UHGV virus genome: UHGV-0179428
Source: a virus
Direction: 5' to 3' (one strand)
Length of the DNA stretch: 64,000 nt
Position numbers and translations under genes: made by a program
Notes under the pieces: model-generated
Seen by the model: the letters and a program-made list of their open reading frames with translations, nothing else
What the model was told of the DNA's origin: nothing
Databases searched by the model: none
Shown: in pieces, positions 16,356 through 61,146 of the stretch
Numbering within the stretch: the stretch's first letter is position 1
Layout: each line of letters opens with the position of its first letter

Positions 16356-16367
16356 TAAGGATACGTG

Positions 16368-16763
16368 ATGGCGATCAGTGTTAAAAATGTACGTGACCGA
16401 ATCACCAACGTAGAGAACCAAATGGCAACTGGCCCACGTGTTGATCCGCAAGTTGCGTCGAAAGCACATAATGCCGCCGACACTTTTTCGGGTTGGACGC
16501 CAAGTCGGTTAGACTGCGGGGGGAGTTGCAGCTGGACGTGCTCAAACGGTTGTACGCATGGCTGTACGAGTTGTTCGGGCACCTGTACGTCAGTGTGTGT
16601 AGGTAGCTGCTCCTCTGCGTGCGGTAACCAGTGTACTGGATGTAGTTCAACGTGTTCCGGTGGCTGCTCAGGTTGCAGTGGGACCTGTGGGGGTGCTTGC
16701 TCGGGCCGTTGTTCTACGGGTTGTTCTGGTGCTTGCTCTGGTGGCTGTTCTGGCCCAACCTAA
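16368..16763 (+). CDS. Cys-rich repeat peptide A (131 aa), candidate radical-SAM substrate/precursor
   Basis: ATG after AAGGA RBS; N-terminus MAISVKNVRDRITNVEN, junction DCGGSCSWTCS, then about 80 aa of C-x3-C repeats rich in G/S/T; paralogous to the next two ORFs. Confidence 0.8.
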   Translation: MAISVKNVRDRITNVENQMATGPRVDPQVASKAHNAADTFSGWTPSRLDCGGSCSWTCSNGCTHGCTSCSGTCTSVCVGSCSSACGNQCTGCSSTCSGGCSGCSGTCGGACSGRCSTGCSGACSGGCSGPT

Positions 16764-16773
16764 GAGGTGAAAA

Positions 16774-17172
16774 ATGGCAATTGGATTACCTGCGCTACAA
16801 GCGCGGCTAAATAACATTGACAACACTGCATTGAAGAATACGGGTGCAGTACAAAACTATATTCGTGGGAAAGCGACGAACAACGCAGACTTATTCGGTG
16901 GGCAAGCTCGCAACCACTATGACTGTGGTGGGAGCTGTAGCTGGACCTGTTCGAGCTGTTCTGGTGGTTGTACAGGGAACGCATCAGGCGGCTGTGGTTC
17001 TTCCTGTTCTGCAAACTGTGTATCAGGTTGTAGTGCAGGCTGTAGTGGATGTTCGAATACCTGTTCTGGTGGCTGTTCAGGAAGCTGTACGGGGAGTTGT
17101 TCTAACTCGTGTGTAGGAAACTGTTCTGCAGGCTGCTCAGGTAGTTGTTCTGGTGGGTGTTCTGGGAGGTAA
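16774..17172 (+). CDS. Cys-rich repeat peptide B (132 aa), candidate radical-SAM substrate/precursor
   Basis: ATG after AGAGGTGA; N-terminus MAIGLPALQARLNNIDN, junction DCGGSCSWTCS, about 80 aa of C-x3-C repeats. Confidence 0.8.
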   Translation: MAIGLPALQARLNNIDNTALKNTGAVQNYIRGKATNNADLFGGQARNHYDCGGSCSWTCSSCSGGCTGNASGGCGSSCSANCVSGCSAGCSGCSNTCSGGCSGSCTGSCSNSCVGNCSAGCSGSCSGGCSGR

Positions 17173-17174
17173 TT

Positions 17175-17381
17175 GTGATTAGCCTTAAGAACCTTCGTGA
17201 TCGGTTAGTAACAGCGGAAGGGTATATTACGACCGCTAACGCAAACAACTATATTGCAAACCAGGGCACTGTGTCTTCAACCAATAACCTTGCCGGTTTA
17301 CCTTTAAGCCATTATAACTGTAACGGTGGATGTAGCTGGTCGTGCAGTGGTAGCTGTAGTAAAGGTGCGGGGGGAAGGTAA
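17175..17381 (+). CDS. Cys-rich peptide C (68 aa), short paralog of A/B
   Basis: GTG at 17175 five nt after GGGAGG, three nt after the stop of peptide B; N-terminus MISLKNLRDRLVTAEG, junction NCNGGCSWSCSGSCS, then only 8 more residues. The track start at 17145 is an upstream in-frame artefact. Confidence 0.65.
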   Translation: MISLKNLRDRLVTAEGYITTANANNYIANQGTVSSTNNLAGLPLSHYNCNGGCSWSCSGSCSKGAGGR

Positions 17382-17530
17382 CTAAGCCCTCCAGTGGTAG
17401 TATGTCTATTACGCAATAACCGAGTTAATTGTACGGGTTTACTACTGAGTTTCAAGTCACCGGTAGGCAATGGCGCGGTGGTTTCTATACCCTGAATGTC
17501 CGTTTGACCGTGAAATAATTGGAGCAATCA

Positions 17531-18418
17531 ATGAAGAATGATTTACATTTAGCGTACAAAACAATTTTCAATCATCCACTTCACATTTCTTCCCCTGATT
17601 CCGTACGTGCACACTTAGCAGATGAAGTTCGTCTGCTGACTCAGTTGCCGGGCGAATGGCCTAAAGTGCGCGGACGTTTCTTTACCGATCGTAAAAACTA
17701 TCGTGTAGAAAATACGTTTAAGATTCGTGATCTGACGGCAGAAAGTGTAGTGGTCTTTACCGGTGACTCCGAGTTGCGTGGTAAACTGGTTGCGGGTAAA
17801 TATTTCTTTAGTGACGGGATTTTGAATAACTCCGTAGATATGGAATTGTTCTTTACCCCATTTGAAGAAATGGGCGCAAAACCGGTTGCCCGTCGTTGGT
17901 GGTCACCGGATTACTTAGGCTCGTTCCCGTATTTCTTTACCCTGGTAACACCAGAAACGAAGAACTATTTCGATACGGAATCGTATATCGAAATTGAAGG
18001 GTACGAAGCGTTAGGGATTAATTGCTTAGCGGATTTAATGGCGTATAGCTATAAGTTCGTGTGGGATCGTGAACGTTCCGTGTGGGTTGCCCTGACGGAT
18101 GAACACGAAATCACAAAACGCATCCGTAAGCCTTGGATGCAGCATTTGATTCAAACGCGTATTGGCGAGCATCCGTCAACAGAAGCGGATCTGGCAAAAC
18201 TCGTTAGTTTCTTAATGACGAAAGTCACGTTAACTGACGAAGAGAAAGCAGCAGTGTCGGCGGTGTTGGACCGTAACGTAACGTTAGCGGATTTAGAACG
18301 TTTAAATGTCCGTTATAAAGACCTTAACCGTGTTTTGGAAGCGTATAACTCTCCATTTTTGTTAACCCCTGGTGCTAACGTAGACGACGATCCTTTGTTC
18401 GCCATTGATTATATTTAA
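17531..18418 (+). CDS. hypothetical protein (296 aa) inside the Cys-peptide/radical SAM locus
   Basis: ATG at 17531 seven nt after GGAG (track start 17519 is TTG); no recognisable motif; sits between the precursors and the radical SAM genes. Confidence 0.75.
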   Translation: MKNDLHLAYKTIFNHPLHISSPDSVRAHLADEVRLLTQLPGEWPKVRGRFFTDRKNYRVENTFKIRDLTAESVVVFTGDSELRGKLVAGKYFFSDGILNNSVDMELFFTPFEEMGAKPVARRWWSPDYLGSFPYFFTLVTPETKNYFDTESYIEIEGYEALGINCLADLMAYSYKFVWDRERSVWVALTDEHEITKRIRKPWMQHLIQTRIGEHPSTEADLAKLVSFLMTKVTLTDEEKAAVSAVLDRNVTLADLERLNVRYKDLNRVLEAYNSPFLLTPGANVDDDPLFAIDYI

Positions 18419-18439
18419 AAACGACCGGAGTCACCTGCA

Positions 18440-19363
18440 ATGACAACCAATGCAGAACCAAGGTTATCGAATCGTTTATACGATAAACCCACCGTATTGT
18501 CCGTAGTCGCTACGTCCAAGTGTAACCTGGATTGTAGCTTCTGCGGTGGAGCCTATTACATGAATCGTGAAGATTCTCCGCGAGAGTTTCAACGTGAGCG
18601 AATTTTGGAAGCGCTGGAAGCTAATCCAACCATTACCGAAATTCAGTGGACGGGTGGTGAGCCATTACTGGCAACCCGTAAAATTGAGGCGTTTGTTGAC
18701 GAATTAAAAGTGATTCGTCCAGAACTCAAACACCAGTTGTATACCAATGGCTTAAAGATGCGTAAATCGCATCTCCCGTTGCTAAAACAGTTTGACAATG
18801 TCTACGTTAGCATCGATGGGTTTAAGTCGTCTGAGCGCCCGTTTATGCGCTTTATTGACGAAGGCTGTTACGAAGCACTGGAAACGATCTACGAGCTGGA
18901 TAATGTCCAGACTTGGGGTGTCCTGACACGGGACCGTTTAGGGGACAAACGCTGGCACGAAGATATTATTCAGCTGCACAGCGCGATTTACCATTACGGT
19001 TTCCGTGCAATGACGTTACTCTTAGATGCGAAAATGCCAAAACCTTTATCGCCTGACCACGTCATGAACTTTATTTACGGCTACTATCAGGTTCAGGACA
19101 ACATTGAACGGCTGAATGTAGTAAATAGTCGTGAATGCGGCTTTACGGTAAGTAAAGTGTTTGAAGAAGGGTGTAACGTTTGCAGCGAAAGTCTTTGGAT
19201 TAATGCAGACGGTGGTGAGCACCAACTCCAGAATGCACCTAACGTTCTGGAATCGGGATGTAACCAACTGGCCTTCTCTATCGGTGTAGAGGCGTACGAA
19301 TATATTCGTCGTGTGGTGATGGCAGGGCGTAATAGAGGGGCGGCAAATGAGTCAAGTAAATGA
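18440..19363 (+). CDS. radical SAM enzyme (307 aa)
   Basis: CNLDCSFCGG (CxxxCxxC) near the N-terminus, GGEPLL glycine-rich motif, VSIDGFKSSERP segment, additional C-terminal cysteines (CGF...CNVC...GC). Confidence 0.8.
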   Translation: MTTNAEPRLSNRLYDKPTVLSVVATSKCNLDCSFCGGAYYMNREDSPREFQRERILEALEANPTITEIQWTGGEPLLATRKIEAFVDELKVIRPELKHQLYTNGLKMRKSHLPLLKQFDNVYVSIDGFKSSERPFMRFIDEGCYEALETIYELDNVQTWGVLTRDRLGDKRWHEDIIQLHSAIYHYGFRAMTLLLDAKMPKPLSPDHVMNFIYGYYQVQDNIERLNVVNSRECGFTVSKVFEEGCNVCSESLWINADGGEHQLQNAPNVLESGCNQLAFSIGVEAYEYIRRVVMAGRNRGAANESSK

Positions 19364-20669
19364 ATTCCCTAAGCAGTTAACGTATCAGATCGTAACCAAC
19401 CTTTCGTGTAACCTGGACTGCGAATATTGTTACGAACGTAAGTACCCGCGTAACAACAAAGCGGCTGACATTGTTGATTTCTTACACGCCTGTTTTGAAC
19501 GTGATAAAAACGAACCGAATGTTGAAGTTATTATCGACATTATCGGTGGTGAACCGTTCATGCAGCCTAAACTGCTGTTGGCTGCGTTTGAAACCGCTGA
19601 GCAGTTGTGTAAAGAACACAACCGACCGTTTATGTTTAGTATCTCCACGAACGGAACGCTGTTAGATCGTCCGTTGAACCGTGAGATTGTAGAACGTTGG
19701 AAAGATAAACTTTCGGTTGGGGTTTCGATTGATGGCTTACCTGAATCCCATGACCGTTATCGTATCTTCACAACAACACGCCAGGGTTCTTACGAAGCCG
19801 CAGTACGTGGCTATAACTACTTAAAAGAGGTTGGCATTGCAGAGCTCGGCGTAAAAGCAACCTTTACGTTAGAAACGCTGCCGTTCTATGCTGCGGGGAT
19901 GAAGTCATTAATTGACATTACTGGCGGTGGGACAATTTCTGGAAACGTAACTTTCGAAGACGTTATGCCACGTAGCATGGCGACGTCAATCGCTTTACAG
20001 ATGATGGATGTGATAGATTACTGGGTTGAGAAAGGATTACACACCAACCCACGTAATATCCTATCGCATATCATTCCAGAAGGGTTGGATTTCGACACGA
20101 TTTGGGAACCGAACTGGCGTGACCAGTTACTGTATAATGACACCGTACGGTTGAACCCGGAACGCTTACGTCCGTTCTGTGGGACGTTAACGCACATGAC
20201 GTGCTTAGGGTTTGACCGTAAGATCTTTGGCTGTAACCGCTTTATGTCAACGGTAACGTCGCGTTCTGCGGTGTTTGAGTTGGTAGGTCGGGAATTCGTC
20301 AGTCTGGACAACGGTAAATTGTTAGAAGAGATTCAAACGCAATATACCAACTACCCAGAGACCTGTTTAGGTTGTCCGATGAAACACGCTTGTGGTAGCT
20401 GCGCAGCGGCTTCTTACGAGAACGGGGAAGGAACGTTAGAAGACCGTAAAGCGTATCACGCTGAACGACGTCAGTGTGGCTGGACGACAGCGAAACTGAT
20501 GGTGGCGGAATACTGGAAACAGAAGATGGGTACGACGTCAGCAAAAGCGTTCCACGACACGAGTATGTGTTATTGCCCACGCTGTGTTCGTGAACGTGCC
20601 CAAAAGGAAAAATTATTAAGAGAAGCCAAAGATGAAACCAATTCTGATCAACAATATTACGAAGCGTAG
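19347..20669 (+). CDS. radical SAM enzyme with SPASM-like C-terminal Cys cluster (440 aa), anSME/peptide-maturase-like
   Basis: CNLDCEYCY (CxxxCxxC), GGEPF, SIDGLPESHDRYR, C-terminal CLGCPMKHACGSC plus further cysteines; overlaps the previous gene by 17 nt. Confidence 0.8.
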   Translation: MSQVNEFPKQLTYQIVTNLSCNLDCEYCYERKYPRNNKAADIVDFLHACFERDKNEPNVEVIIDIIGGEPFMQPKLLLAAFETAEQLCKEHNRPFMFSISTNGTLLDRPLNREIVERWKDKLSVGVSIDGLPESHDRYRIFTTTRQGSYEAAVRGYNYLKEVGIAELGVKATFTLETLPFYAAGMKSLIDITGGGTISGNVTFEDVMPRSMATSIALQMMDVIDYWVEKGLHTNPRNILSHIIPEGLDFDTIWEPNWRDQLLYNDTVRLNPERLRPFCGTLTHMTCLGFDRKIFGCNRFMSTVTSRSAVFELVGREFVSLDNGKLLEEIQTQYTNYPETCLGCPMKHACGSCAAASYENGEGTLEDRKAYHAERRQCGWTTAKLMVAEYWKQKMGTTSAKAFHDTSMCYCPRCVRERAQKEKLLREAKDETNSDQQYYEA

Positions 20670-21204
20670 AATTCGACTTCTGGATAAGTTTCTGGAAAAC
20701 AGTAAGCTATTTGGTTGTTATGTGGTGATTAACGGTGAAGATTTTACCGATGACGTAAAACGCTTGCTGATTCGTCACGGTGTGACTGTAATCATCCCAA
20801 TGTACTGCACCGAACTTACTGACCTGTCGGTCGCGGAAATTGAAAAACGTAACCCAGGGTTTGAAGAACGGGTATTGGATTTCCCACGTCACAAAATTGC
20901 GTTTCTACGCCGCTCTTTAAGCGAACCCAGCGCAGAATCTATCACTGTGTTGGCATTGTCCTTCCCCGGCATTACTATCTTCGCAACACGTAACCCGAAC
21001 TCACCGATTGATGGGTTTTACGATGAGCGGGAGAAATTTAATACCGTGATTTTTCCTGAGCTAACGCCAGAAGAATGCCAGGGTATCCGTATCGATTGGG
21101 AATCGGACTTCGACACAAGATTCCGTCATATCGATTTTGAACTGTTAATCGAATTAGGGTTGATTAAAGGAGACGATGAATGTCTGCTACTGGTGAAGGC
21201 TTAA
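20632..21204 (+). CDS. hypothetical protein (190 aa)
   Basis: ORF overlapping the 3' end of the SPASM gene by 38 nt; no motif recognised. Confidence 0.6.
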   Translation: MKPILINNITKRRIRLLDKFLENSKLFGCYVVINGEDFTDDVKRLLIRHGVTVIIPMYCTELTDLSVAEIEKRNPGFEERVLDFPRHKIAFLRRSLSEPSAESITVLALSFPGITIFATRNPNSPIDGFYDEREKFNTVIFPELTPEECQGIRIDWESDFDTRFRHIDFELLIELGLIKGDDECLLLVKA

Positions 21205-21851
21205 CGAAAGAAGAAATCCGTCGCCGTTATTTTGCGCATGATTTACCGATTGACCGTCATGGTAACTACATGGAGAAAATCGGTAGCGAAGATCACGGCC
21301 GTACAGGGTTTTGTGCGTTACTGCACTATAAGCTGATTGATGGGATGTCTGATCGCGAAGCATTGGAACAAATGCGTAACTACGACATGTCTGAAATCGA
21401 AGCACGGTTTACGCTACAGAAAGCGAAAGACTTTGTTAACGACACGTTGGGAATCGACCTGGAAGAAATTCGTACAGGTTTACGTTCCACGGTGCGGTAC
21501 ATCTTTACCGATGTTCAGAAAATTCTAAGCGCTCTGGAATTCCGTTATCAGGATGCACGCTATGCTGAGATTCAGGTAGGTGATTTCACTTTCCAGGCAG
21601 ATGAGAAGTCACAGGTAGCATTGAGTCGTTATATCCAGTCAGAAACTGCGCCAGCGTATTGGTTAACGGCTAACAACACCCGTATCGAACCGTTTACGTT
21701 AGAACAGTGCAAGACGTTGCTGGCAGCAATCGTTGAGCGTGATCAAAGACTACATCACGCAATGTCTGAGCAGAAAAGAGAAGTCAGGGCTTGGGCTGAA
21801 GCACGTGATTACGATTCGATAAAAGCGTTTGCGTTAGAGCAAGGGCTGTAA
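21180..21851 (+). CDS. hypothetical protein (223 aa)
   Basis: ORF with AAAGGAG RBS; last gene of the plus-strand block. Confidence 0.7.
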   Translation: MSATGEGLTKEEIRRRYFAHDLPIDRHGNYMEKIGSEDHGRTGFCALLHYKLIDGMSDREALEQMRNYDMSEIEARFTLQKAKDFVNDTLGIDLEEIRTGLRSTVRYIFTDVQKILSALEFRYQDARYAEIQVGDFTFQADEKSQVALSRYIQSETAPAYWLTANNTRIEPFTLEQCKTLLAAIVERDQRLHHAMSEQKREVRAWAEARDYDSIKAFALEQGL

Positions 21852-21930: not shown

Positions 21931-22461
21931 TTAGGCTGGAGTAAAACCGTCAAGTTCACTATTTAACGTTGACATGTCCGTAACAACACGTAGCGTCAGT
22001 GTGCACAAAGACCCAGGTTGAAATTTGAGATTACCACCTTTAACGTTACAGTTATACAGGGCTGTAGATTCTGTTACTGCGCCTTTAGCGATTATAACCT
22101 CACCTACCGCAAACTCATCGTCAACCCAACCGCGTTTCTGAATCAGCTCGTTGAGAATAGCGACAATCTGATCGTTATTCTTTTCAAGTTCTTCAGCAGT
22201 GGCTACATTGTAAGTTTGTGGGCCTAAAACATTAACCCCGGGAATTCGGGTATAGTGGAATACTTTAGAGCCTGTGAAATTTGCAGATGTGGGCCGTGCG
22301 GTGAGCGTTACTTGCGCGTTGCGGGAACTACCAGGTTCTGTAGGCTGGTAGTTGGCAACGCCTTCACCAAAGTCAACATCCTCTAAAGTCAGTGGTGCTT
22401 GAAGCTGATTGTTTTTAAGGTTTATTAAATCAATCAGCTGTTGTTCAGTGCTTTTAGCCAT
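21931..22461 (-). CDS. ELDGFT-family paralog (176 aa), probable virion-associated protein
   Basis: N-terminus QQLIDLINLKNNQL...LTLEDVDFG, C-terminal ELDGFTPA; paralogous to the two ORFs upstream. Confidence 0.75.
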   Translation of the reverse strand: MAKSTEQQLIDLINLKNNQLQAPLTLEDVDFGEGVANYQPTEPGSSRNAQVTLTARPTSANFTGSKVFHYTRIPGVNVLGPQTYNVATAEELEKNNDQIVAILNELIQKRGWVDDEFAVGEVIIAKGAVTESTALYNCNVKGGNLKFQPGSLCTLTLRVVTDMSTLNSELDGFTPA

Positions 22462-22529
22462 GGTAGCGATTTCTCTATCGTGAACTAAAAGATCTGGGGG
22501 TTAACACCCCCAGACGGTTCTTTTGGGAT

Positions 22530-23060
22530 TTAGGACGTAAAGCCGTCCAGCTCACCGTTGGTGGTAGCCAGGTCAATACGTTTGTCTTCCACTTTCGGGG
22601 TAATAACAAACGTTGCCATTACACCTGGTTTATAACGGAGGTTCTTTTCAGTAACAGTACACGTTACCGTACGCAGAGTAACGTTTTCATGTTCGTCTTT
22701 CTGGTCTTCGGTAGAATAAGAAACGTCCGCTGGATGAATAGCATCGTCCGGTTTAACTTTATTGATGTAATATTGTAACCATGCGCGCAATTCGTTTTGA
22801 TCTTCCCAACGAGACAGATCGTCAGTTAGTTCAATACGACCTACAACACCCGGTTCCAGACGATCGTAATGCAGTTCGATTGCGCCTTTGAAATTCTCAG
22901 AACCTGGTAGTGCAGTCATGGTAACTTTGGTATTCTTACCTTCGCCTTCCAGCGCAGTAGGGAGACCAAAGGACACTTCTTTATCAGTAATCTGATGTGG
23001 TAGCTCAGTGTTAGCAGCATTATAAAGCGCGACCAACATCATCTGGTTAGTAGCGGCCAT
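22530..23060 (-). CDS. ELDGFT-family paralog (176 aa)
   Basis: C-terminal GELDGFTS; same architecture as neighbours. Confidence 0.75.
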   Translation of the reverse strand: MAATNQMMLVALYNAANTELPHQITDKEVSFGLPTALEGEGKNTKVTMTALPGSENFKGAIELHYDRLEPGVVGRIELTDDLSRWEDQNELRAWLQYYINKVKPDDAIHPADVSYSTEDQKDEHENVTLRTVTCTVTEKNLRYKPGVMATFVITPKVEDKRIDLATTNGELDGFTS

Positions 23061-23125
23061 TATCTTAGATCCTTAATAATACGTTTTAAAGAAATATCGG
23101 GGGAGGACACCCCCCCCCGATTCAA

Positions 23126-23668
23126 TTACTCTTTAGGACTCGGTGCAGTGAAGCCCTCGAGCTCACCATCCAGGCTGTCCAGAGCTACCTTCTGAGGAGC
23201 CGGTACACGGTACTGGTAATTTGCAATCATACCAGCCTGGAACTTGATATGACCTTCTTTTACCTGTACAGTATAGTTGAAACCGCCTTCACCTGCATCA
23301 GTTTTCTGGATTTCCAGTTCTTCTGCGATAAAGGCATCATCGACATAACCTTTAGTAATCATGTCGGCATTCAGTGCAGCTACGATAACATCGTTAGCGA
23401 CATCAGTAGTTGCATCAGTAACGGTTTTCACACCGATTAAAGATTCGGCGACCAGACGGATATAATGGAACTCTTTGCTTCCGGTAAAGTTAGCGCTTTC
23501 GTCTTTTGCAGTCAGGACAACTTTAGTATTACGGTTGTCATCTTCGCCAGAAGGACTATAAAGTTCTACAGTACCGAAATTAACATCGCCAACAGTCAGT
23601 TGGTGTTCCAGGGAACCGTTTTTGGCATTAACGGCGTCAATAAGTTGCTGTTGAAAAGCTTTAGCCAT
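23126..23668 (-). CDS. ELDGFT-family paralog (180 aa)
   Basis: N-terminus QQLIDAVNAKNGSL, C-terminal GELEGFTAP. Confidence 0.75.
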   Translation of the reverse strand: MAKAFQQQLIDAVNAKNGSLEHQLTVGDVNFGTVELYSPSGEDDNRNTKVVLTAKDESANFTGSKEFHYIRLVAESLIGVKTVTDATTDVANDVIVAALNADMITKGYVDDAFIAEELEIQKTDAGEGGFNYTVQVKEGHIKFQAGMIANYQYRVPAPQKVALDSLDGELEGFTAPSPKE

Positions 23669-23808: not shown

Positions 23809-24291
23809 ATGATAAAGCGTTTTCTTATCGTTTTGGTTGGTGTTTTTTCGTTGGCAGGATGTGCTTTACAACCGAATAGTAACGGTCAATTCTCGACTGT
23901 GCCGGTGGAGCCACATGACATGGTTATTTACACCTGTATGGGTGTAGAGCAAGATTTTGCGAATTACAAACCTGTCGTCAGCTCGACTAACCTCATGTTA
24001 GGGTCAGTAACCGTACTCGATACTGGTGCTAATTGGGTAGCCACTTGGCCAAACGGTAAGATTGAGTCGCCACAACTTTATAAAGACTTATTAGGTAAAG
24101 TTAATGGGAATATTGATCCTATCACTGGACAACGTTACTACCGTGTAAATGGTTTACTTTCAAAAACACCAACATTTGCGTATTCTACTTTGGAATATAA
24201 AACGGGTGATGGTAAAGGCATTACTTTCTTCCGCTGTATAGAAGGTGTAGCGCCTGACACTGGAACAATGCTCCATCCTGCGGAACAATAA
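23809..24291 (+). CDS. predicted lipoprotein (about 160 aa)
   Basis: ATG at 23809 after AAGGTG; signal peptide with lipobox LAGC (MIKRFLIVLVGVFSLAGC); only plus-strand gene inside the minus block. Confidence 0.7.
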   Translation: MIKRFLIVLVGVFSLAGCALQPNSNGQFSTVPVEPHDMVIYTCMGVEQDFANYKPVVSSTNLMLGSVTVLDTGANWVATWPNGKIESPQLYKDLLGKVNGNIDPITGQRYYRVNGLLSKTPTFAYSTLEYKTGDGKGITFFRCIEGVAPDTGTMLHPAEQ

Positions 24292-24297
24292 AAACTA

Positions 24298-24333
24298 CCC
24301 TACTCCCGATAAGGAGTAGGGTATATTCATTTT
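24298..24333. terminator. bidirectional terminator between the convergent lipoprotein and peptidase genes
   Basis: Hairpin CCCTACTCC-CGATAA-GGAGTAGGG followed by TATATTCATTTT. Confidence 0.6.
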
Positions 24334-24406
24334 AACCGCCAAATAGTGCGTAAAACGCATTCTAAGCGTCTTTATACAAAATGAGGTATAAACACCTTAG
24401 AAATAG

Positions 24407-24922
24407 TTAAATATCGACTATGGCGCTCCAATCGATTGGTTTTTGCTTAACAACTTTCACAGTACCACGATTTGGTGACCAGAAAGTAATGTTAGGCTGG
24501 TTACGAACGTCGATGTGCAACCAACTGATGTCACATTCAATAAAGTGAATGAACGGAAACTCGTCAGGGTTAGCAGCGATATAGTCGTGGACCTGTTTTA
24601 CGGTGCTATCCAACAACGTTGCATCAATGGCGTTACCGAATTTGTGTTGACTTCCTGAATCGGCGTAAAGCTGCAATGCACGTTGTTTATAACTACCACC
24701 CTTAGGCTTTTCTTGATTAATAAAGAAATCTAAGGTTCTTAGTCCGCGTTGCTGTGCGGCAGTTGAGTTAATCACCATTCTACCGAAACGGTTACGAATC
24801 TGTTGTAGGGAAATCATTAGCAACGGATTCATAAACCGAATTGCGGAATCGCCGTATTTGGCAATGTAGGACTGTGGTACTAACTCTCTGAGTTTAAAGT
24901 TACTCGGATTTGGATGAAACAT
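24407..24922 (-). CDS. peptidase M15-like (D-Ala-D-Ala carboxypeptidase fold) cell-wall hydrolase
   Basis: Motif DSGSQHKFGNAIDA matches the S.H..G.A.D zinc-peptidase signature; sits in the lysis neighbourhood. Confidence 0.5.
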   Translation of the reverse strand: MFHPNPSNFKLRELVPQSYIAKYGDSAIRFMNPLLMISLQQIRNRFGRMVINSTAAQQRGLRTLDFFINQEKPKGGSYKQRALQLYADSGSQHKFGNAIDATLLDSTVKQVHDYIAANPDEFPFIHFIECDISWLHIDVRNQPNITFWSPNRGTVKVVKQKPIDWSAIVDI

Positions 24923-25574
24923 CTTCCCTCCCAGACAGAAATGCTCGTTTGATGTTCAGGTATTTGACATTAACGGGACAATCTGTGGTGATATCAATAC
25001 GTTCGTGGTCAGGGATTGCAGGTTCCTTAAACTCGCGAACGAATAAATAGTTTCGATTGTAATCTAACGTACGAAACGCGTTAGTGTTGTAGGATGGCTT
25101 TGCATTAGGATCTACGTAGGCATCCCAGCCGAATTCAACAACGGCCTTATAAAATGTTTGGCAGATATAAGGCGAGATTTCCAACGACTGCATAATACGC
25201 AGGAACGTTAAGTCAGAAAACTCTTTGTCGATAAAACGCGAAACGTTACCACCCGGTGTCATGGGATAGCTACGCTCCGTGTTACATTTTTGATAAAGTA
25301 GGTCGTGAATGCAGGCCGCAGGTGCCCACGGTCCGTCAGGATGAAAAATTCCCTGGAGGTGTTCAGGAATTGACGCTAAATCGGTAACGAACCCTTTCGG
25401 TGCCGTTAACCACAGTTGTGTGTCAGGCAATACACCTGTTAAATAAACCGCACGGTCTAAGTGTACGTGGTCGTGATAAATTTCACGTAACGTAAACGGA
25501 TAATGGTAATCCTCCGTTAATACAAACCACTTATTGTCTAAACGTTTATATTGAAGCTTCTCCATTACCCACAC
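24900..25574 (-). CDS. DUF1353-like protein (224 aa)
   Basis: FVTDLASIP ... IHDLLYQ motifs typical of DUF1353; overlaps the downstream gene by 23 nt. Confidence 0.5.
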   Translation of the reverse strand: MWVMEKLQYKRLDNKWFVLTEDYHYPFTLREIYHDHVHLDRAVYLTGVLPDTQLWLTAPKGFVTDLASIPEHLQGIFHPDGPWAPAACIHDLLYQKCNTERSYPMTPGGNVSRFIDKEFSDLTFLRIMQSLEISPYICQTFYKAVVEFGWDAYVDPNAKPSYNTNAFRTLDYNRNYLFVREFKEPAIPDHERIDITTDCPVNVKYLNIKRAFLSGREDVSSKSE

Positions 25575-25681
25575 CTTCCCTTATAGAAACCAGAAAAATT
25601 CGTATCCACGTTTTTCGTCTTTACGTTTCCGCCCAGACGTTAACGCCTTCCACAATAACGCTAAGAGTTTAGCAAACCAGT

Positions 25682-26272
25682 TCATTTTACTAACCCCGCC
25701 TTCGCCACATAATCCGGCATTTCCCTGAACACACGTGCGTACCAACCGTAAGCGAATTTTTCATTCTTCTTACGCTTTTCGGAGATTTCTGTGTAGTAAG
25801 TTACCTGGTGTGAGATTAATGCAAAGATTAAGATGCCTAATCCTTCGTCTTTACGGTATTTCAGATAAGCATTCAGGGCACCTAGCGTTTTAGGCCCCAT
25901 CCCCCCGTCGGTGTCAATATCTGCGTAAAGCTTCCCTTCGTTATTTAAAACGTTGAGAATACGTTGTAACGATTTCACACAGTTAACGCGGCCAGAGTTA
26001 ATAGCAAAATCAAACATCCGGTCTGCGAGCAAGGGTGAGATAGCGAAAATCTCATCGAGTTTAAGTTTCTTCCACCAACCGCGATCGTAAATATCAAACG
26101 CCTGCGCACGGGTCAGATCCTTCATTCTTCCTTTATACCCGTATTCGCGTGCAGTTGTTAGTGTTACACCGTGACAGGTTTCCCCACCTTTATCGTCGGG
26201 GTCGTTCACGTACCCACCTTCTAAATCTGTTTTCGAAGCAATAATACCTTCTTTAGTCCAACGTTCGGCCAT
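25682..26272 (-). CDS. endolysin, glycoside hydrolase family 108 with C-terminal peptidoglycan-binding region
   Basis: N-terminal LEGGYVNDPDDKGGETCHGVT is the GH108 signature; strong RBS AAAGAGGAG. Confidence 0.75.
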   Translation of the reverse strand: MAERWTKEGIIASKTDLEGGYVNDPDDKGGETCHGVTLTTAREYGYKGRMKDLTRAQAFDIYDRGWWKKLKLDEIFAISPLLADRMFDFAINSGRVNCVKSLQRILNVLNNEGKLYADIDTDGGMGPKTLGALNAYLKYRKDEGLGILIFALISHQVTYYTEISEKRKKNEKFAYGWYARVFREMPDYVAKAGLVK

Positions 26273-26285
26273 TTTGTTTAACTCC

Positions 26286-26328
26286 TCTTTTACACAAAAA
26301 AAGAAAAGAGGGTGGGATTACCCCACCC
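26286..26328 (-). terminator. rho-independent terminator downstream of gene 26334-26810
   Basis: Hairpin GGGTGGG-ATTA-CCCCACCC; on the minus strand it is followed by TCTTTTCTTTTTTTG. Confidence 0.6.
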
Positions 26329-26333
26329 TGTCG

Positions 26334-26810
26334 TTATTTCTTCTTAGCGCGTGATGGCTTAGCTGGCGGTGTTTCAACAGTCGGTTTACGCGCAACACGC
26401 ACTGTAAAACCACCGACCCAGGTTAGGCACTCAGGACGGAAGAAAATGCCGTGCTCGATTGCACTGCCGTCCAGCGGTAACTCACCAACCTGCTCTACCC
26501 ATACGTCGTCTTCAGTAAGGGTTAAGCCATACTGCTCGTTAATTACAGGCAACAGGTCCGCAGTCGTGGTTGCTGTCTCAACTAACAGTTTCGGCAATAC
26601 GTTGAGGAAATACAAACCTGCATCGATACGATTATACTGGAACGTTTGCTTATTAGCATAACCGAGATTCTTAACCGCCACAACCGTAATTTCGGTGTTG
26701 TACGCACCGGTACTTACGACGGGCTCACCCAATGTAACTTTGGCGGTGTCAAGCTCAGCGTCTGGGTTAGCCTTTTTAATAAGGTCGAAGATAGTTTCTT
26801 GACTGGTCAT
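26334..26810 (-). CDS. ELDGFT-family-related protein (158 aa)
   Basis: N-terminus ETIFDLIKKANPDAELDTAKVTLGEP resembles the family N-terminus; basic C-terminal tail. Confidence 0.65.
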   Translation of the reverse strand: MTSQETIFDLIKKANPDAELDTAKVTLGEPVVSTGAYNTEITVVAVKNLGYANKQTFQYNRIDAGLYFLNVLPKLLVETATTTADLLPVINEQYGLTLTEDDVWVEQVGELPLDGSAIEHGIFFRPECLTWVGGFTVRVARKPTVETPPAKPSRAKKK

Positions 26811-26823
26811 TACTGTAATCCTC

Positions 26824-27672
26824 TTAATCTAAGAATCCCGGTAAGACCGAATTAGTTTTAGCTAATTCAATCTTCGACTTCGGACGATCGGTTCCGTTAA
26901 AGTGGATTAACAGATTACCGGTCAGGTTAGCACACAGTCCACTGAGTGCGAGTACCAGCACACGCGTGTACTTCGTATTTGCGCCTTCGTAACCTGCGGT
27001 AGGGCCATCGTACATAACCTTGGCACCGTAGAGGTTATTAGCAGCGTTTTTAGGTACGCTTACCCATTTCTCATCAACGACGTTAACCAGTTTAGTGGCT
27101 AACTCAGCCAGGTCGACAGTGTCGTTAATGGTAATCGGATCGAGGTAATCTTTTTCTGCGGTGAAGTCAATTGGATAAGAATAAACCGCTGCGTTACCTT
27201 TCTTAGTGGACGGATACTCTACCAGGTTTTCTAATTGAGTAACAGGTAACAGTTTAGCCAGATCAATAGGATCGCGTAGCGTAAGTGTCACCTCGCCACA
27301 CCATTCGTAGGATTTCTCATTAGCGGTAAACTGATGGGTTTCACCTTCAACTTTCGCATCAATGATATCCGACGGCAGGATATTTAAATCGTATTTTGCG
27401 TTGATTGCATTAAGCAAATCTGCAGCGGTTACAACACCATCGTTACCGAATACCAACTCACCTGTTAGGTATTCGGGCAAGTTACGACGATGATAAGTCA
27501 CAGTTAAAGTAGTAGACTCATCGCCTTTGAGTTTAGAAGTCAGAACCACCTGGGTATCAACCCCAGTACCAGTAGGTTCGCCGATATCAACATCACTGAA
27601 GGTCAATGGCGGAACAATATTGTTTTCAGTGTTGATGAGTTTTAGCAGTTTCTGTTTTGACGTAAGAGACAT
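26824..27672 (-). CDS. ELDGFT-family-related protein (282 aa)
   Basis: N-terminus KLLKLINTENNIVPPLTFSDVDIGEP, C-terminal SVLPGFLD. Confidence 0.7.
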   Translation of the reverse strand: MSLTSKQKLLKLINTENNIVPPLTFSDVDIGEPTGTGVDTQVVLTSKLKGDESTTLTVTYHRRNLPEYLTGELVFGNDGVVTAADLLNAINAKYDLNILPSDIIDAKVEGETHQFTANEKSYEWCGEVTLTLRDPIDLAKLLPVTQLENLVEYPSTKKGNAAVYSYPIDFTAEKDYLDPITINDTVDLAELATKLVNVVDEKWVSVPKNAANNLYGAKVMYDGPTAGYEGANTKYTRVLVLALSGLCANLTGNLLIHFNGTDRPKSKIELAKTNSVLPGFLD

Positions 27673-42864: not shown

Positions 42865-43431
42865 TCAAGTTCCTGTAGCCGGGCTTTCCTCAGCTGTGTC
42901 GTCATCTGGAACCTCGAATGTAAGAACGGCTTCATCATCAATACAGAAGATTGCATCTTCTTCGTTTGCCAATGCCCGTTCGGTTGTATCAAATAACGTC
43001 ACCATAAACGCATTCATCCACGCAGGAGAATCGTCAGCAACGTTAACAGCAATGGGTTCGTTACCTAAGGTGATATCTGCAGCACGTAAATCTTCGGGTT
43101 GTAAGTTCGTTCCGCAGAATTCATTTACAACACCTAAAATGTCACGAAGGTTGTCTTCAGTACCGTCTAACGAAATCAAAATAGGTTCAGACGCTAACAC
43201 TTCGTCCGCATCCAAACGGTCGTAATAAACAACCACAGAAGCACCATCAGGTTTCCTGATTTTTGTAATCTCTGTCAGTGTGTTACGACGCGATGTGGTC
43301 GGGGACGGGTTTGCCATAGTGTTGCTAATACGGATTTCGTTTAGAGACAACCGTGAACCGTTATCGTGGTTGATTAAAGCGACCACCAATTCGGCTGAGG
43401 CCAGACTTAAATCAGGTACGTAAGTAGTCAC
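42865..43431 (-). CDS. hypothetical protein (about 188 aa), paralog of 36315-36833
   Basis: Probable GTG start at 43431 after GGGAGG (VTTYVPDLSLASA); conserved blocks shared with the paralog. Confidence 0.65.
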   Translation of the reverse strand: MTTYVPDLSLASAELVVALINHDNGSRLSLNEIRISNTMANPSPTTSRRNTLTEITKIRKPDGASVVVYYDRLDADEVLASEPILISLDGTEDNLRDILGVVNEFCGTNLQPEDLRAADITLGNEPIAVNVADDSPAWMNAFMVTLFDTTERALANEEDAIFCIDDEAVLTFEVPDDDTAEESPATGT

Positions 43432-43440
43432 TAAAACCTC

Positions 43441-43491
43441 CCAGATCAAAAAAAATAAAAACACCTACCGCCCATAGAATCGGGCGGTAGG
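43441..43491 (-). terminator. rho-independent terminator downstream of gene 43518-43892
   Basis: Hairpin CCTACCGCCC-GATTCTAT-GGGCGGTAGG followed on the minus strand by TGTTTTTATTTTTTTT. Confidence 0.7.
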
Positions 43492-43517: not shown

Positions 43518-43892
43518 TCAGACCGTTAGTTCTCCACATAACTCAACATCGATACCGAACGTCATTCCCACTTCTTGAAGTTTGTTCGCCAGTAGGTGAC
43601 GATGACAAAACTTACCTGCGGGACAATAGCACATCAAAACCAAATCTTCGTGTCTAAGCAACGAGACCAACGTTTCGGCATCGGTATCTAACAGTCGTTC
43701 GAGTTTGTACAAATACTTTACCGTGTATTCACGCTCAGCGCCAGCGTCTTGGGCAGAATTTTTATACGCCATTAGGAAATCCCAGTCGGGGGCGAGTTCC
43801 TTTCGCCCTGACTTCACAGTGATATCCACTGCGTGAAATCCTTTTTGCTTAGCTAACCGCCACTTAGCGAGTTGTAGCGTCCAGATACGCAT
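43518..43892 (-). CDS. hypothetical protein (124 aa), possibly DUF488-like
   Basis: C-terminal LVLMCYCPAGKFCHRHLLA loosely resembles the DUF488 CHR..LA motif; weak. Confidence 0.5.
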   Translation of the reverse strand: MRIWTLQLAKWRLAKQKGFHAVDITVKSGRKELAPDWDFLMAYKNSAQDAGAEREYTVKYLYKLERLLDTDAETLVSLLRHEDLVLMCYCPAGKFCHRHLLANKLQEVGMTFGIDVELCGELTV

Positions 43893-44089
43893 TAGGAACG
43901 AGTCTGCGATTCAGCCATCAACGCACAGCTTCTTACAGCCTGTGCATGAAGCTCTGTACCGGGTGTATAATCCTTTATACAGTCCTGGTACAATTCACGT
44001 TTCGTTTCTAAAGTACGAGAGTCGTACTCGGCATTCGCTAAAGCCCCTGCAATAACGATAAAAACTACAATCGGCAACCAAATTTTCAT
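43892..44089 (-). CDS. small membrane-anchored protein (65 aa)
   Basis: N-terminal hydrophobic helix (IWLPIVVFIVIAGALA); paralogous to the next ORF. Confidence 0.55.
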   Translation of the reverse strand: MKIWLPIVVFIVIAGALANAEYDSRTLETKRELYQDCIKDYTPGTELHAQAVRSCALMAESQTRS

Positions 44090-44298
44090 TTCCCTCCTCC
44101 CATTCGTTTAGCGTATTCCGTACACGCCATTACTAATTCAGCGTAACGTGGGCTATCTACAGTAGTGCCTGACATACATTCACGATAAAGGGAGTCTCTA
44201 CGTGCTTCGTCAGACGTCTTAACGTAGAACATCAACATCGCTACAATCAACGCAGTTGAAACGATTGCTGAAATGATATATCCGTCATTTATTTTCAT
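44086..44298 (-). CDS. small membrane-anchored protein (70 aa), tandem paralog
   Basis: Hydrophobic N-terminal helix; conserved R..LY..C...T......A....C segment shared with 43892-44089. Confidence 0.55.
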   Translation of the reverse strand: MKINDGYIISAIVSTALIVAMLMFYVKTSDEARRDSLYRECMSGTTVDSPRYAELVMACTEYAKRMGGGK

Positions 44299-60567: not shown

Positions 60568-61146
60568 TTATTTCGTTGTTGGGCTTTCTGTCTTCGACTT
60601 AAGCTGGCCTGATTTCTCAAGCTTCTTCTCAACAACTTTTGTGGCTATCTCAAGAGACTTATAAGCCAACGTTTTAATCGGCCAAGTCGCAAAAACAACC
60701 AACGCAAAGAACGGTACCAACGTCACAATCAGAACATCTAAACTGTCTTCTGGAAAATGTTGATGCGTGTCGTATCCCAGGAAACCAGTTACAACAACCG
60801 TCGCTAACGTCAGAAGGGCAATAATGAACTTCTGGGGAGCAGATAATTTCGGCCATAAGGTTAGCATGGTTTCTTTGCTAATCTCATCCCCTAGAGATTC
60901 CACAGCGTCAGTTGCCTGCTGATGGAATTGTTCTGACAGTTTGCCTAAGTTATCGATTAGCGTCGGGCGTAAGTCGGAAAGAATCTTTGTTCCAGAACGG
61001 GTGACGTCAACGTCGACGTCATCCCCATACGCCGCTTTCAAGAGTTTCGTTAACTGTTCAGACTGTTCTTTACTTAACTTTCTGTTTCCAGCTTGGATCA
61101 ATAAGTCAAGTATTTCAGTGGGTAGTGCTTGTGTGCTCGGTTCCAT
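60568..61146 (-). CDS. predicted membrane protein (192 aa)
   Basis: Two hydrophobic helices (FIIALLTLATVVVTGFLGY; VLIVTLVPFFALVVFATWPI). Confidence 0.6.
   Translation of the reverse strand: MEPSTQALPTEILDLLIQAGNRKLSKEQSEQLTKLLKAAYGDDVDVDVTRSGTKILSDLRPTLIDNLGKLSEQFHQQATDAVESLGDEISKETMLTLWPKLSAPQKFIIALLTLATVVVTGFLGYDTHQHFPEDSLDVLIVTLVPFFALVVFATWPIKTLAYKSLEIATKVVEKKLEKSGQLKSKTESPTTK

Follow-up and report, generated by a model that had tools for sequence, protein, structure and literature searches.

The best explanation of the DNA analysed here (the window, a stretch of 64,000 nucleotides of the virus genome UHGV-0179428) is that it comes from a jumbo phage that resembles SPN3US, is related to Seoulvirus and infects Salmonella-type hosts, and that the locus at positions 23809-26272 is an envelope-degrading gene block. 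We put at about one in two the probability that this block is an operon for late lysis whose wall hydrolases are assisted by a phospholipase. A preliminary description of the locus as a lysis neighbourhood is thereby supported in part. The two wall hydrolases are present and replace one another in related phages; however, the phospholipase A2 (PLA2) class of the DUF1353 protein and a conserved 34-codon ORF between the GH108 and DUF1353 genes had been missed, and the proposed spanin-like role of the lipoprotein did not hold up.

The locus consists of four tightly packed minus-strand genes between two hairpins and of one lipoprotein gene on the opposite strand. From 5′ to 3′, the block encodes a GH108 muramidase, a 34-aa micro-protein, a DUF1353 protein and an M15-like peptidase, and an export signal is absent from all four proteins. 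The three enzyme genes previously described as lying in a row, together with the lipoprotein gene, were all recovered. The upstream hairpin (26309-26329, minus strand), which was identified from a terminator scan and the sequence as a G+C-rich stem with a T-run, follows the upstream DUF7941 gene, lies 25 nt ahead of the GH108 ribosome-binding site and is the upstream limit of the four-gene block. Because similar hairpins follow each of the neighbouring paralogue genes, this hairpin may attenuate transcription rather than stop it fully. The hairpin at 24296-24323, which the terminator scan of both strands and the sequence identify as a bidirectional terminator with a stem of 11-12 bp, is common to the M15-like and lipoprotein genes. 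The lipoprotein gene had been regarded as divergent from the hydrolase genes, but the two are convergent and their 3′ ends meet at this hairpin; it is divergent only relative to the DUF7941 gene at 23668. Sigma-70-like promoters at the locus showed no excess over chance, the early-promoter motif TATATTAC did not occur near the block, and no shared late motif was seen by eye.

The first gene of the block (25682-26272, minus strand) encodes a GH108 N-acetylmuramidase of 196 aa, as indicated by Pfam, PHROG and PDB matches. Glyco_hydro_108 (PF05838; E = 1.2e-23, 83.9 bits against a curated cut-off of 21.2) and PG_binding_3 (PF09374; E = 1.6e-16, 60.7 bits against 24.6) occur in the expected N-to-C order, the catalytic E-G-G-Y motif is N-terminal (LEGGYVNDP, residues 17-25), and the protein matches phrog_315, labelled 'endolysin', and has no signal peptide. 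The closest solved structures are 6V40/6V3Z (E = 1.7e-44, residues 6-179), and on these matches the protein is classed as a TtsA-type enzyme, a close relative of the solved TtsA-type structures. We rejected its assignment as a TtsA equivalog and consider it a relative only, since its score against the NCBIfam model NF040573, 'holin-associated N-acetylmuramidase' (71.6 bits, E = 7e-20), is far under the equivalog cut-off of 240 bits.

The micro-ORF (25581-25685, minus strand), an unannotated feature read from the sequence, encodes the 34-aa peptide MNWFAKLLALLWKALTSGRKRKDEKRGYEFFWFL with a net charge of +5. Its ATG overlaps the TGA stop of the GH108 gene within AAATGA, and to judge from this junction the micro-ORF is translationally coupled to GH108. 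The junction and the NWF...RKR peptide are kept in SPN3US, phiEaH2 and Asesino-like phages, in which GH108 is only ~62% identical. Moreover, 13 codons vary among six sequences of the window clade, 10 of them solely synonymously, a pattern that indicates purifying selection on the micro-ORF. The helical hydrophobic moment of the peptide is not higher than that of shuffled versions, 44% of which reach it, and an amphipathic helix is therefore not called with confidence. Disruptin gp28 of phage phiKT is a cationic peptide that replaces spanins. Likened by description alone, the window peptide shares with gp28 the properties of a small, highly cationic peptide inside a spanin-less lysis cluster; however, it is shorter (34 aa), and its amphipathic moment does not exceed that of the shuffled controls.

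The DUF1353 gene (24900-25565, minus strand) encodes 221 aa, or 224 aa if the GTG at 25574 is used as in the ORF reported at 24900-25574. The ATG at 25565 is likely the true start, because a ribosome-binding site precedes it and because the protein collection lists the 221-aa version. The protein matches PF07087 (E = 1.2e-14, 54.1 bits against a curated cut-off of 22.5), as do all 24 aligned homologues. The founding member of the DUF1353 family, TtaP, is an experimentally shown phospholipase A2 that hydrolyses the sn-2 position (PMC11525133). In the window protein, H90, D91 and D121 are the equivalents of H70, D71 and D85 of TtaP, and these residues and the GFVTDLASIP motif are invariant in the 24 homologues and near-invariant in 42 diverse ones. 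The H-to-D spacing is 15 residues in short family members, as in TtaP, and the jumbo-phage forms add an insert of 16 residues at this point. We thus regard the window protein as a candidate TtaP-class phospholipase A2. The preliminary description had correctly listed a DUF1353 protein, and what is added here is an experimentally defined enzyme class with its catalytic residues.

Compared with TtaP, the window protein is ~100 aa longer owing to an N-terminal beta domain, the insert between HD and Asp, and a C-terminal extension, and the extra N- and C-terminal domains are specific to jumbo phages. A profile of the 42 diverse DUF1353 members gave nine weak matches in the PDB, four of which were group XIV PLA2 structures with the motifs aligned (8k1w, E = 0.15; 1faz/1lwb, 0.25; 7ygk, 1.1; 4aup, 2.4); a profile of the jumbo-phage members only had no PDB match. 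The predicted structure (pLDDT 90) gave no meaningful Foldseek match in the PDB and no link to PLA2 structures, and its matches among viral models were mainly other DUF1353 proteins, with one weak 'Phospholipase A2' entry. The prokaryotic PLA2 family PF09056 had no match in SPN3US, and no control genome reached its cut-off.

TtaP is encoded together with TtsA, a GH108-type muramidase, and the authors of that study mention prophage relatives of both; deletion of ttaP in S. Typhi gave no envelope phenotype (PMC11525133). The typhoid-toxin islet and the window therefore encode the same two families side by side, a GH108-type muramidase and a DUF1353 PLA2 (a candidate one in the window), and in both cases the two proteins are without a signal peptide. 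The window pair differs in being carried by a lytic jumbo phage, with a coupled micro-ORF and an additional M15 peptidase.

That last enzyme, encoded at 24407-24922 (minus strand, 171 aa), is a divergent M15/LAS zinc peptidase according to its PHROG match, motif and fold. The first 23 nt of its gene are shared with the end of the DUF1353 gene, and eight of nine loci show such an overlap, of 23-29 nt. Although the window protein matches phrog_894, 'endolysin', at 6e-28, it has no Pfam match at E <= 1; among its homologues, 15 of 23 match PF08291, Peptidase_M15_3 (best 6.8e-8), and 12 of 23 match PF13539. The zinc-ligand pattern S-x-H-x-x-G-x-A-x-D...H is present (SQHKFGNAID, WLHID), and H93-x6-D100...H136 and E129 are invariant in the alignment. 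Furthermore, the eight top PDB matches of the predicted model (pLDDT 93) in Foldseek are LAS enzymes, namely, the Zn DD-peptidase 1lbu (probability 0.96, E = 0.02), LdcB and hedgehog N-domains, and in Vibrio podophages its homologues carry the annotation endolysin. The H-x6-D...H triad, the LAS fold and the lack of a signal peptide are shared with phage M15/LAS endolysins of the T5 L-alanyl-D-glutamate peptidase type and with the endopeptidase ChiX, which serves holin-dependent secretion in Serratia (PMC4259817). In contrast to these enzymes, the window protein is too divergent for Pfam detection, and its homologue has been seen as traces in some SPN3US particle preparations. The earlier claim that two different peptidoglycan-cleaving types are encoded in a row is thus borne out at the level of prediction by a GH108 muramidase and an M15/LAS peptidase.

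Comparison across phages identifies the DUF1353 gene as the constant member, beside which the muramidase and the peptidase take each other's place in related genomes. Whole-genome searches of eight complete relatives, in which a 220.8-kb record ~94% identical to the window served as its stand-in, found GH108 only in three (phiEaH2, Caitlin and Wellington), the M15-like gene only in three (Phobos, CR5 and Derbicus), and both in two (SPN3US and the window clade). This swapping implies that the M15-like protein is an alternative endolysin and fits a role of both proteins as lysis enzymes. By synteny in 18 jumbo relatives, DUF1353 is present in all, with GH108 adjacent in 15 and the M15-like gene adjacent in nine. 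Outside this group, 40 non-redundant loci of unrelated phages contained 13 peptidoglycan hydrolases and seven Pfam holins within two genes of DUF1353, and Fusobacterium phage FNU_1P has the order endolysin, small proteins, DUF1353, holin. The association with wall hydrolases is not universal, because the distant jumbo phages RSL2 and pVa-21 have no recognisable wall hydrolase beside DUF1353.

The lipoprotein gene (23809-24291, plus strand) encodes an outer-membrane-type lipoprotein of 160 aa with two conserved Cys. The lipobox LAGC noted earlier is confirmed: 11 of 12 homologues retain it, and the residue at +2 is Ala. The protein matches phrog_9559 (function unknown) and shows no homology to named families in Pfam or NCBIfam, its family being confined to this phage group; its candidacy as a lysozyme inhibitor was rejected because no such family matched. 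Two alleles that are ~72% identical occur in phages that are otherwise 93-96% identical, and this hypervariability fits a surface or exclusion role better than a spanin. The lipoprotein is probably a separate transcription unit that is not part of the mechanism of the enzyme block, and its sequence variation suggests that it is probably a surface or superinfection-exclusion factor. Of the features expected of an exclusion lipoprotein of the T5 Llp/Cor type, it shows a lipobox, its own terminator and two divergent alleles, but it lacks homology to any named family and has no early-promoter motif upstream. Accordingly, of the two roles first proposed for it, spanin-like or exclusion factor, we retain the latter as the better fit.

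Several other readings of the locus must be weighed against a late lysis operon. The preliminary description would be refuted, on its own terms, if the DUF1353 and M15-like proteins were structural enzymes of the virion unrelated to lysis, and the proteomics of SPN3US points partly in this direction. In purified wild-type virions, the DUF1353 homologue gp157 is recorded among the low-copy proteins of the head (PMC5694885, Suppl. Table 1). The M15-like homologue gp158 was detected only in trace amounts, in some particle preparations, and the authors considered these traces non-specific; GH108 (gp156) has never been reported from virions. The listing of gp157 makes an entry-enzyme role a live rival, according to which the phospholipase, and perhaps the M15-like peptidase, would be a low-copy virion enzyme that travels in the head, enters the cell along with the DNA and acts on host membranes; in these nucleus-forming phages it could make or open the lipid early-infection vesicle, with its adjacency to endolysins being incidental or reflecting dual use. 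The protein probability of 100% for gp157, marked 'Head', and the occurrence of gp158 in tailed but not in tailless particles speak for this role, as does the fact that SPN3US-type phages form membrane-bound early-infection vesicles. No explanation exists for how these vesicles arise and open, and no lipase has been proposed for the task. Nevertheless, we think it unlikely. The spectral counts of gp157 are very low (4 peptides, 9 spectra, SC/M 0.37 versus 0.93 for the 12-copy portal; PMC5694885), the protein was not found in three preparations of mutant particles, and it ran at full length, with no A-x-E prohead-protease motif seen in the window homologue. Moreover, its gene is coupled to genes of non-virion hydrolases, and DUF1353 also occurs widely in small temperate phages and in prophages; these form no such vesicle, and endolysins and holins flank the gene there. 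The fuller version, in which the ejected PLA2 cuts inner-membrane lipids to form or open the vesicle and is used a second time at lysis, appears distinctly improbable. The position of DUF1353 genes in many phages downstream of tail-fibre or DUF4376 genes agrees with an entry enzyme and also with a non-enzymatic tail or tail-fibre assembly chaperone that has the two hydrolases as unrelated neighbours. PHROG 1158 is indeed labelled 'tail assembly chaperone', and the window has a radical-SAM tail-fibre module immediately upstream. However, the label seems to have been assigned from gene position only. Against a chaperone stand the invariance of the catalytic His-Asp...Asp and of the GFVTD loop even among highly diverse members of the family, the proven PLA2 activity of one member, and the weak profile matches to group XIV PLA2 structures; we give this reading very little credence.

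The remaining readings concern how the membranes would be opened. Holins are notoriously hard to recognise by homology. No holin or spanin family of Pfam, PHROG or NCBIfam was matched by the membrane-protein candidates tested in the window or in the 221-kb, ~94% identical genome, and no membrane-helix ORF lies within 24296-26329, in agreement with the lack of an obvious holin or spanin first noted. The block might accordingly be a self-contained lysis system without holin or spanins, in which the micro-protein and the phospholipase open the inner and then the outer membrane. Conservation of the micro-ORF and its apparent coupling to the muramidase are in keeping with such a system, and sister clades have single-helix micro-proteins of 30-52 aa in the same gap. 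Yet the window clade is without a single-helix micro-protein, the hydrophobic stretch of its peptide comprises only ~14-16 residues with an amphipathicity no better than that of shuffles, and the holin could be one of the other membrane proteins that the genome encodes elsewhere, so that we hold a self-contained system to be improbable. Alternatively, the lipoprotein could be the outer-membrane component of a lysis device of spanin type, acting together with the hydrolase block. Its conserved lipobox and outer-membrane sorting signal would suit this function, it lies less than 2 kb from the block in 15 of 18 relatives, and it is present in all five genomes with GH108 and absent from the three without GH108 (Phobos, CR5 and Derbicus), which keep the DUF1353-M15 pair. 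This co-occurrence may rest on one evolutionary event, because the three lacking genomes are a single lineage. Against a spanin, whether of the Rz/Rz1 type or a unimolecular one like T1 gp11, stand the lack of a type-II membrane partner, whether adjacent or embedded, and of a C-terminal membrane helix, a mature part of ~140 aa with a conserved globular core, a gene that lies on the other strand, has its own terminator and varies in orientation between clades, and the allelic replacement between otherwise near-identical phages. We therefore consider a spanin-like device very unlikely.

We return to the late lysis operon as the preferred reading. With the lambda S-R-Rz/Rz1 cassette, the block shares soluble endolysins without export signals and compact, overlapping genes, and it is probably expressed late, as a canonical lysis cassette is. 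It differs in lacking a recognisable holin or spanin and in having two unrelated wall hydrolases, a putative phospholipase and a cationic peptide of 34 aa. The block proteins would be made late and accumulate in the cytoplasm; since they lack export signals, the endolysins can get to the wall only through a membrane lesion, and a breach of the inner membrane by an unlinked holin, unrecognised in the window clade, would admit them to the periplasm. There, the muramidase would cut glycan strands and the peptidase would cut peptide stems. The phospholipase, with divalent cations, would hydrolyse envelope phospholipids to lysolipids and fatty acids and thereby weaken the outer membrane at the step that lacks a recognisable spanin. 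The micro-protein may be a membrane-active helper, and the lipoprotein would act separately, probably at the surface or in superinfection exclusion.

Our literature search for a phospholipase as a phage lysis partner found only the proposal for Wolbachia phage WO, which has a patatin-based putative lysis cassette (PMC9203015). In both cases, a phage-encoded PLA2 is proposed to act in lysis, in WO beside a small holin-like protein (PMC9203015). However, the enzymes are unrelated in fold (patatin versus a putative group XIV-like helical PLA2), and the WO phospholipase is proposed to replace the endolysin, whereas that of the window accompanies two; both systems are proposals.

Jumbo-phage lysis is poorly understood, and a 2026 review of jumbo-phage biology makes no mention of holin or spanin. 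The conserved micro-ORFs between the block genes are unannotated in most records, and if DUF1353 proteins are PLA2 enzymes, the widespread annotation of their genes as 'tail assembly chaperone' would need correcting. The proteomic assignment of gp157 to the head means that the DUF1353 gene may instead bear on the handling of host membranes at entry; if that were true, the enzyme would parallel, in a bacterial virus, the capsid-borne PLA2 with which parvoviruses escape from the endosome. If, by contrast, PLA2 is a regular partner of endolysins, it would represent a third kind of device for breaching the outer membrane, besides spanins and disruptin, and this phage group would offer a tractable model for the role of TtaP next to TtsA.

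With a probability of roughly one half, we consider the minus-strand block of four genes to be a late lysis operon in which two interchangeable wall hydrolases are joined by a phospholipase of the TtaP class and a cationic micro-protein. The region shares approximately 70% DNA identity with Salmonella phage SPN3US and its relatives from Erwinia, Cronobacter and Proteus, and its gene order is syntenic with SPN3US genes 0156-0159; homologous proteins are also present on contigs of approximately 226 kb in Salmonella assemblies. An IMG/VR genome of 220.8 kb (G001), approximately 94% identical across most of the window, served as the whole-genome stand-in for the phage. The preliminary description named a GH108 endolysin, a DUF1353 protein, an M15-like peptidase and a lipoprotein, and all four ORFs were found as described. 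Its interpretation is partly supported: a lysis neighbourhood with two wall hydrolases remains our preferred reading, and the spanin-like part proposed for the lipoprotein is not supported.

The GH108 muramidase (25682-26272, minus strand, 196 aa) carries Glyco_hydro_108 and PG_binding_3 domains and an EGGY motif, has no hydrophobic stretch at its N-terminus, and is closest among solved structures to the TtsA-type muramidases 6V40 and 6V3Z (E 1.7e-44). The M15-like protein (24407-24922, minus strand, 171 aa) gave no match in a Pfam search. Its label is nonetheless justified by a match to PHROG 894 ("endolysin"), by the matches of 15 of its 23 homologues to Peptidase_M15_3, by the motifs SQH93KFGNAID100 and WLH136ID, which are invariant in the homologue alignment, and by its fold. 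The top eight PDB matches of the structure model (pLDDT 93) are the Zn DD-peptidase 1lbu (probability 0.96), LdcB and hedgehog N-domains.

Among 18 jumbo-phage loci in which DUF1353 is the constant member, GH108 and the lipoprotein gene each lie next to it in 15, and the M15-like gene does so in 9. According to whole-genome searches, GH108 is present and the M15-like protein absent in phiEaH2, Caitlin and Wellington, the reverse is true of Phobos, CR5 and Derbicus, and both are present in SPN3US and the window clade. From this complementary pattern, what is conserved is DUF1353 together with one wall hydrolase or more, and the distribution of the M15-like protein is that of an alternative endolysin. 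A wall hydrolase beside DUF1353 was not found in RSL2 and pVa-21.

The block lies between a minus-strand hairpin before GH108 (26329-26309) and a bidirectional hairpin after the M15-like gene (24323-24296), and a hairpin scan found no strong hairpin between them. Its genes are tightly packed, with a 4-nt overlap between GH108 and the micro-ORF, a 15-nt gap between the micro-ORF and DUF1353, and a 23-nt overlap between DUF1353 and the M15-like gene; the last overlap measures 23-29 nt in eight of nine loci and is replaced by a 9-nt gap in SPN3US. Because each flanking paralogue gene is also followed by a hairpin, directly before the next ribosome-binding site, the hairpins may be attenuators. 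A motif search for the phiKZ-type early-promoter core TATATTAC returned five copies in the window (17223, 31266, 35636, 37911 and 53183) versus 2.7 expected by chance, with no copy between 21.5 and 28.5 kb, that is, none near the block. We infer that the block would be expressed late.

The DUF1353 protein (24900-25574, minus strand) matches its family above threshold. Its likelier start is the ATG at 25565, which is preceded by GGAAGGTG, and the protein collection carries a 221-aa form. According to a 2024 study, TtaP, a DUF1353 protein of 125 aa encoded beside the muramidase TtsA in the typhoid-toxin islet, is a phospholipase A2 and a distant relative of the group XIV enzymes; H70, D71 and D85 are catalytic, the D85A mutant is inactive, and the authors note that TtaP and TtsA both have prophage relatives (PMC11525133). 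Residues H90, D91 and D121 and the GFVTDLASIP loop are invariant in 24 jumbo-phage DUF1353 homologues, and the same positions are nearly invariant across 42 diverse phage members, of which the short ones share the 15-residue His-to-Asp spacing of TtaP. A profile of these 42 sequences gave nine weak matches in the PDB, and four of them are PLA2 structures (8k1w, 1faz/1lwb, 7ygk and 4aup), aligned over the motifs HD..Y, D..F and Y.AVR.FG. The PLA2 matches are individually weak, and jointly they appear unlikely to be due to chance. A Foldseek search with the DUF1353 model did not recover the link to PLA2 structures. Relative to TtaP, the phage protein is enlarged by a beta domain at the N-terminus, 16 inserted residues and a C-terminal extension of 80 residues, and the model is confident in all three parts (pLDDT 90). 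On these grounds, DUF1353 would be a phospholipase family and the window protein a candidate member of the TtaP class. The literature searched does not describe a part for DUF1353 in phage lysis. For phage WO, a lysis cassette built on a phospholipase has been put forward as a hypothesis (PMC9203015); the WO enzyme is a patatin, unrelated to DUF1353.

GH108 and DUF1353 are separated by 107 nt, in which there is a minus-strand ORF of 34 codons (MNWFAKLLALLWKALTSGRKRKDEKRGYEFFWFL) that the preliminary description overlooked; the ATG of this ORF overlaps the TGA stop of GH108 (AAATGA). This junction and a related peptide (NWF...RAL...RRKR) also occur 3′ of GH108 in SPN3US, phiEaH2 and an Asesino-like phage, whose GH108 proteins are only approximately 62% identical. 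Among six window-clade sequences, 13 codons are variable, 10 with synonymous changes only and 3 with an amino-acid change. This mostly synonymous variation indicates that the ORF is translated. The hydrophobic stretch of the peptide is too short to span a membrane, and its amphipathic moment does not exceed that of shuffled sequences. In the window clade it is the only micro-ORF of the gap. Further ones occur in sister clades, namely a "GFFKLLRAIF" peptide and a protein of 30-52 aa that has a single full membrane helix. The gap of the sister clades (4703-4993 in L016, the SPN3US locus; also the related loci L013, L014 and L017-L023) contains up to three micro-ORFs of three kinds, the third being the NWF cationic peptide. 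Parts of these micro-ORFs appear fused or rearranged from clade to clade, and only one of them carries an annotation, which stands in one GenBank record alone (SPLA1a).

Beyond these phages, we tallied two genes on each side of DUF1353 in 40 non-redundant, unrelated IMG/VR loci, some of them related among themselves. The upstream genes include M15_4 (6), M15_3 (1), GH108 (2) and Amidase_3 (1), and the downstream genes include Phage_holin_4_1 (6), a 3-TM holin, SLT, Phage_lysozyme and Muramidase. The Fusobacterium phage FNU_1P encodes an endolysin first, then three small proteins, of which one has a membrane helix, and after these DUF1353 and a holin. Tail-fibre families also occur upstream, together with DUF4376, the commonest non-lysis neighbour (6 of 77 upstream genes), and in CR5 the DUF1353-M15 pair lies directly 3′ of a radical-SAM/DUF4376 tail-fibre module in the same orientation. 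Gene position alone cannot separate the end of a tail module from the start of a lysis module. In the window, a plus-strand cluster directly upstream (16365-21851) encodes Cys-repeat proteins, two radical-SAM enzymes and a DUF4376 protein.

The enzyme might instead be delivered by the virion and act at entry, and the proteomics of SPN3US bears on this reading. The DUF1353 homologue gp157 is listed among the wild-type virion proteins and marked "Head", with 4 unique peptides, 9 spectra, 25% coverage and an SC/M of 0.37 versus 0.93 for the 12-copy portal (PMC5694885), which makes a low-copy head-packaged phospholipase a real possibility. Phages of the SPN3US type form lipid early-infection vesicles, for whose formation and opening there is no explanation, and no lipase is mentioned or proposed in the papers that describe these vesicles. 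However, gp157 is missing from the particles of three mutants. The M15-like homologue gp158, with 2-7 spectra in some preparations, was found neither in tailless particles nor in the wild type, and the authors considered its signal non-specific; gp156 and gp159 have never been reported in particles. By the preliminary description, its reading would be refuted if the M15-like and DUF1353 proteins proved to be virion structural enzymes unrelated to lysis; the head listing points partly that way for DUF1353, and the M15-like homologue was seen only in the traces that the authors considered non-specific. We regard an entry role as rather unlikely. A self-contained lysis system that operates without holin or spanin appears more doubtful still, and chaperone and spanin readings are rated below all of these. 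A hydropathy scan of all window ORFs revealed no membrane protein in the block, and the small membrane proteins of the window match no lysis family, which bears out the earlier remark that no obvious holin or spanin lies nearby. The small membrane proteins are two paralogous proteins of 65 and 70 aa from adjacent overlapping genes (43892-44298, minus strand), each with one N-terminal hydrophobic helix and conserved cysteines and neither matching a PHROG or NCBIfam family, and a 192-aa protein (60568-61146, minus strand; phrog_8722, a label without function) with two C-terminal membrane helices. The latter has a soluble N-terminal half, a highly charged tail and a holin-like topology, approximately 35 kb from the block. 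In G001, the only notable candidates lie 35-45 kb from the block and belong to PHROGs without assigned function. They are an SLT transglycosylase of 241 aa with a signal peptide, a 159-aa protein that has two or three helices, a helix protein of 61 aa, and a 167-aa membrane-helix/coiled-coil protein with a secreted proline-rich protein of 152 aa encoded immediately after it. All fall within a gene cluster in which membrane and secreted proteins are frequent (G001 153410-162065, outside the window), and they are possible unlinked holin- or spanin-like genes; four tandem secreted small proteins lie at G001 147914-149632.

The lipobox of the lipoprotein (23809-24291, plus strand) is conserved in 11 of 12 homologues; the residue at +2 is Ala, and two cysteines are conserved. 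Described earlier as divergent, the lipoprotein gene is convergent with the M15-like gene, with which it shares the bidirectional hairpin, and the suggestion that the protein is spanin-like fails, since neither a partner membrane protein nor a C-terminal helix was found. Members of the family come from this phage group alone (13 clusters among 1.84 billion representatives); they occur in the five GH108-bearing genomes and in none of the three M15-only genomes, which represent one lineage. Within the window clade, two alleles are approximately 72% identical between flanking genes that are 93-96% identical, and replacement extends to the adjacent head paralogue. A role at the surface or in exclusion would be plausible from these features. 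The alleles (window versus the related loci L010, L012 and L015) look like a local recombination or diversification hot spot; the DUF7941 copy beside the lipoprotein is 52-58% identical in several otherwise near-identical phages and approximately 97% in one. Six such DUF7941 paralogues (PHROG 4862-1037, "virion structural protein") surround the block at 21931-23668, 26334-27672 and 42865-43464, and most are followed by their own hairpin. Three tandem small copies in the window correspond to one in SPN3US, gp160, a head protein present in more than 300 copies.

If the block is a late lysis operon, a phospholipase of the TtaP class and a cationic micro-protein would act beside the two wall hydrolases at lysis.
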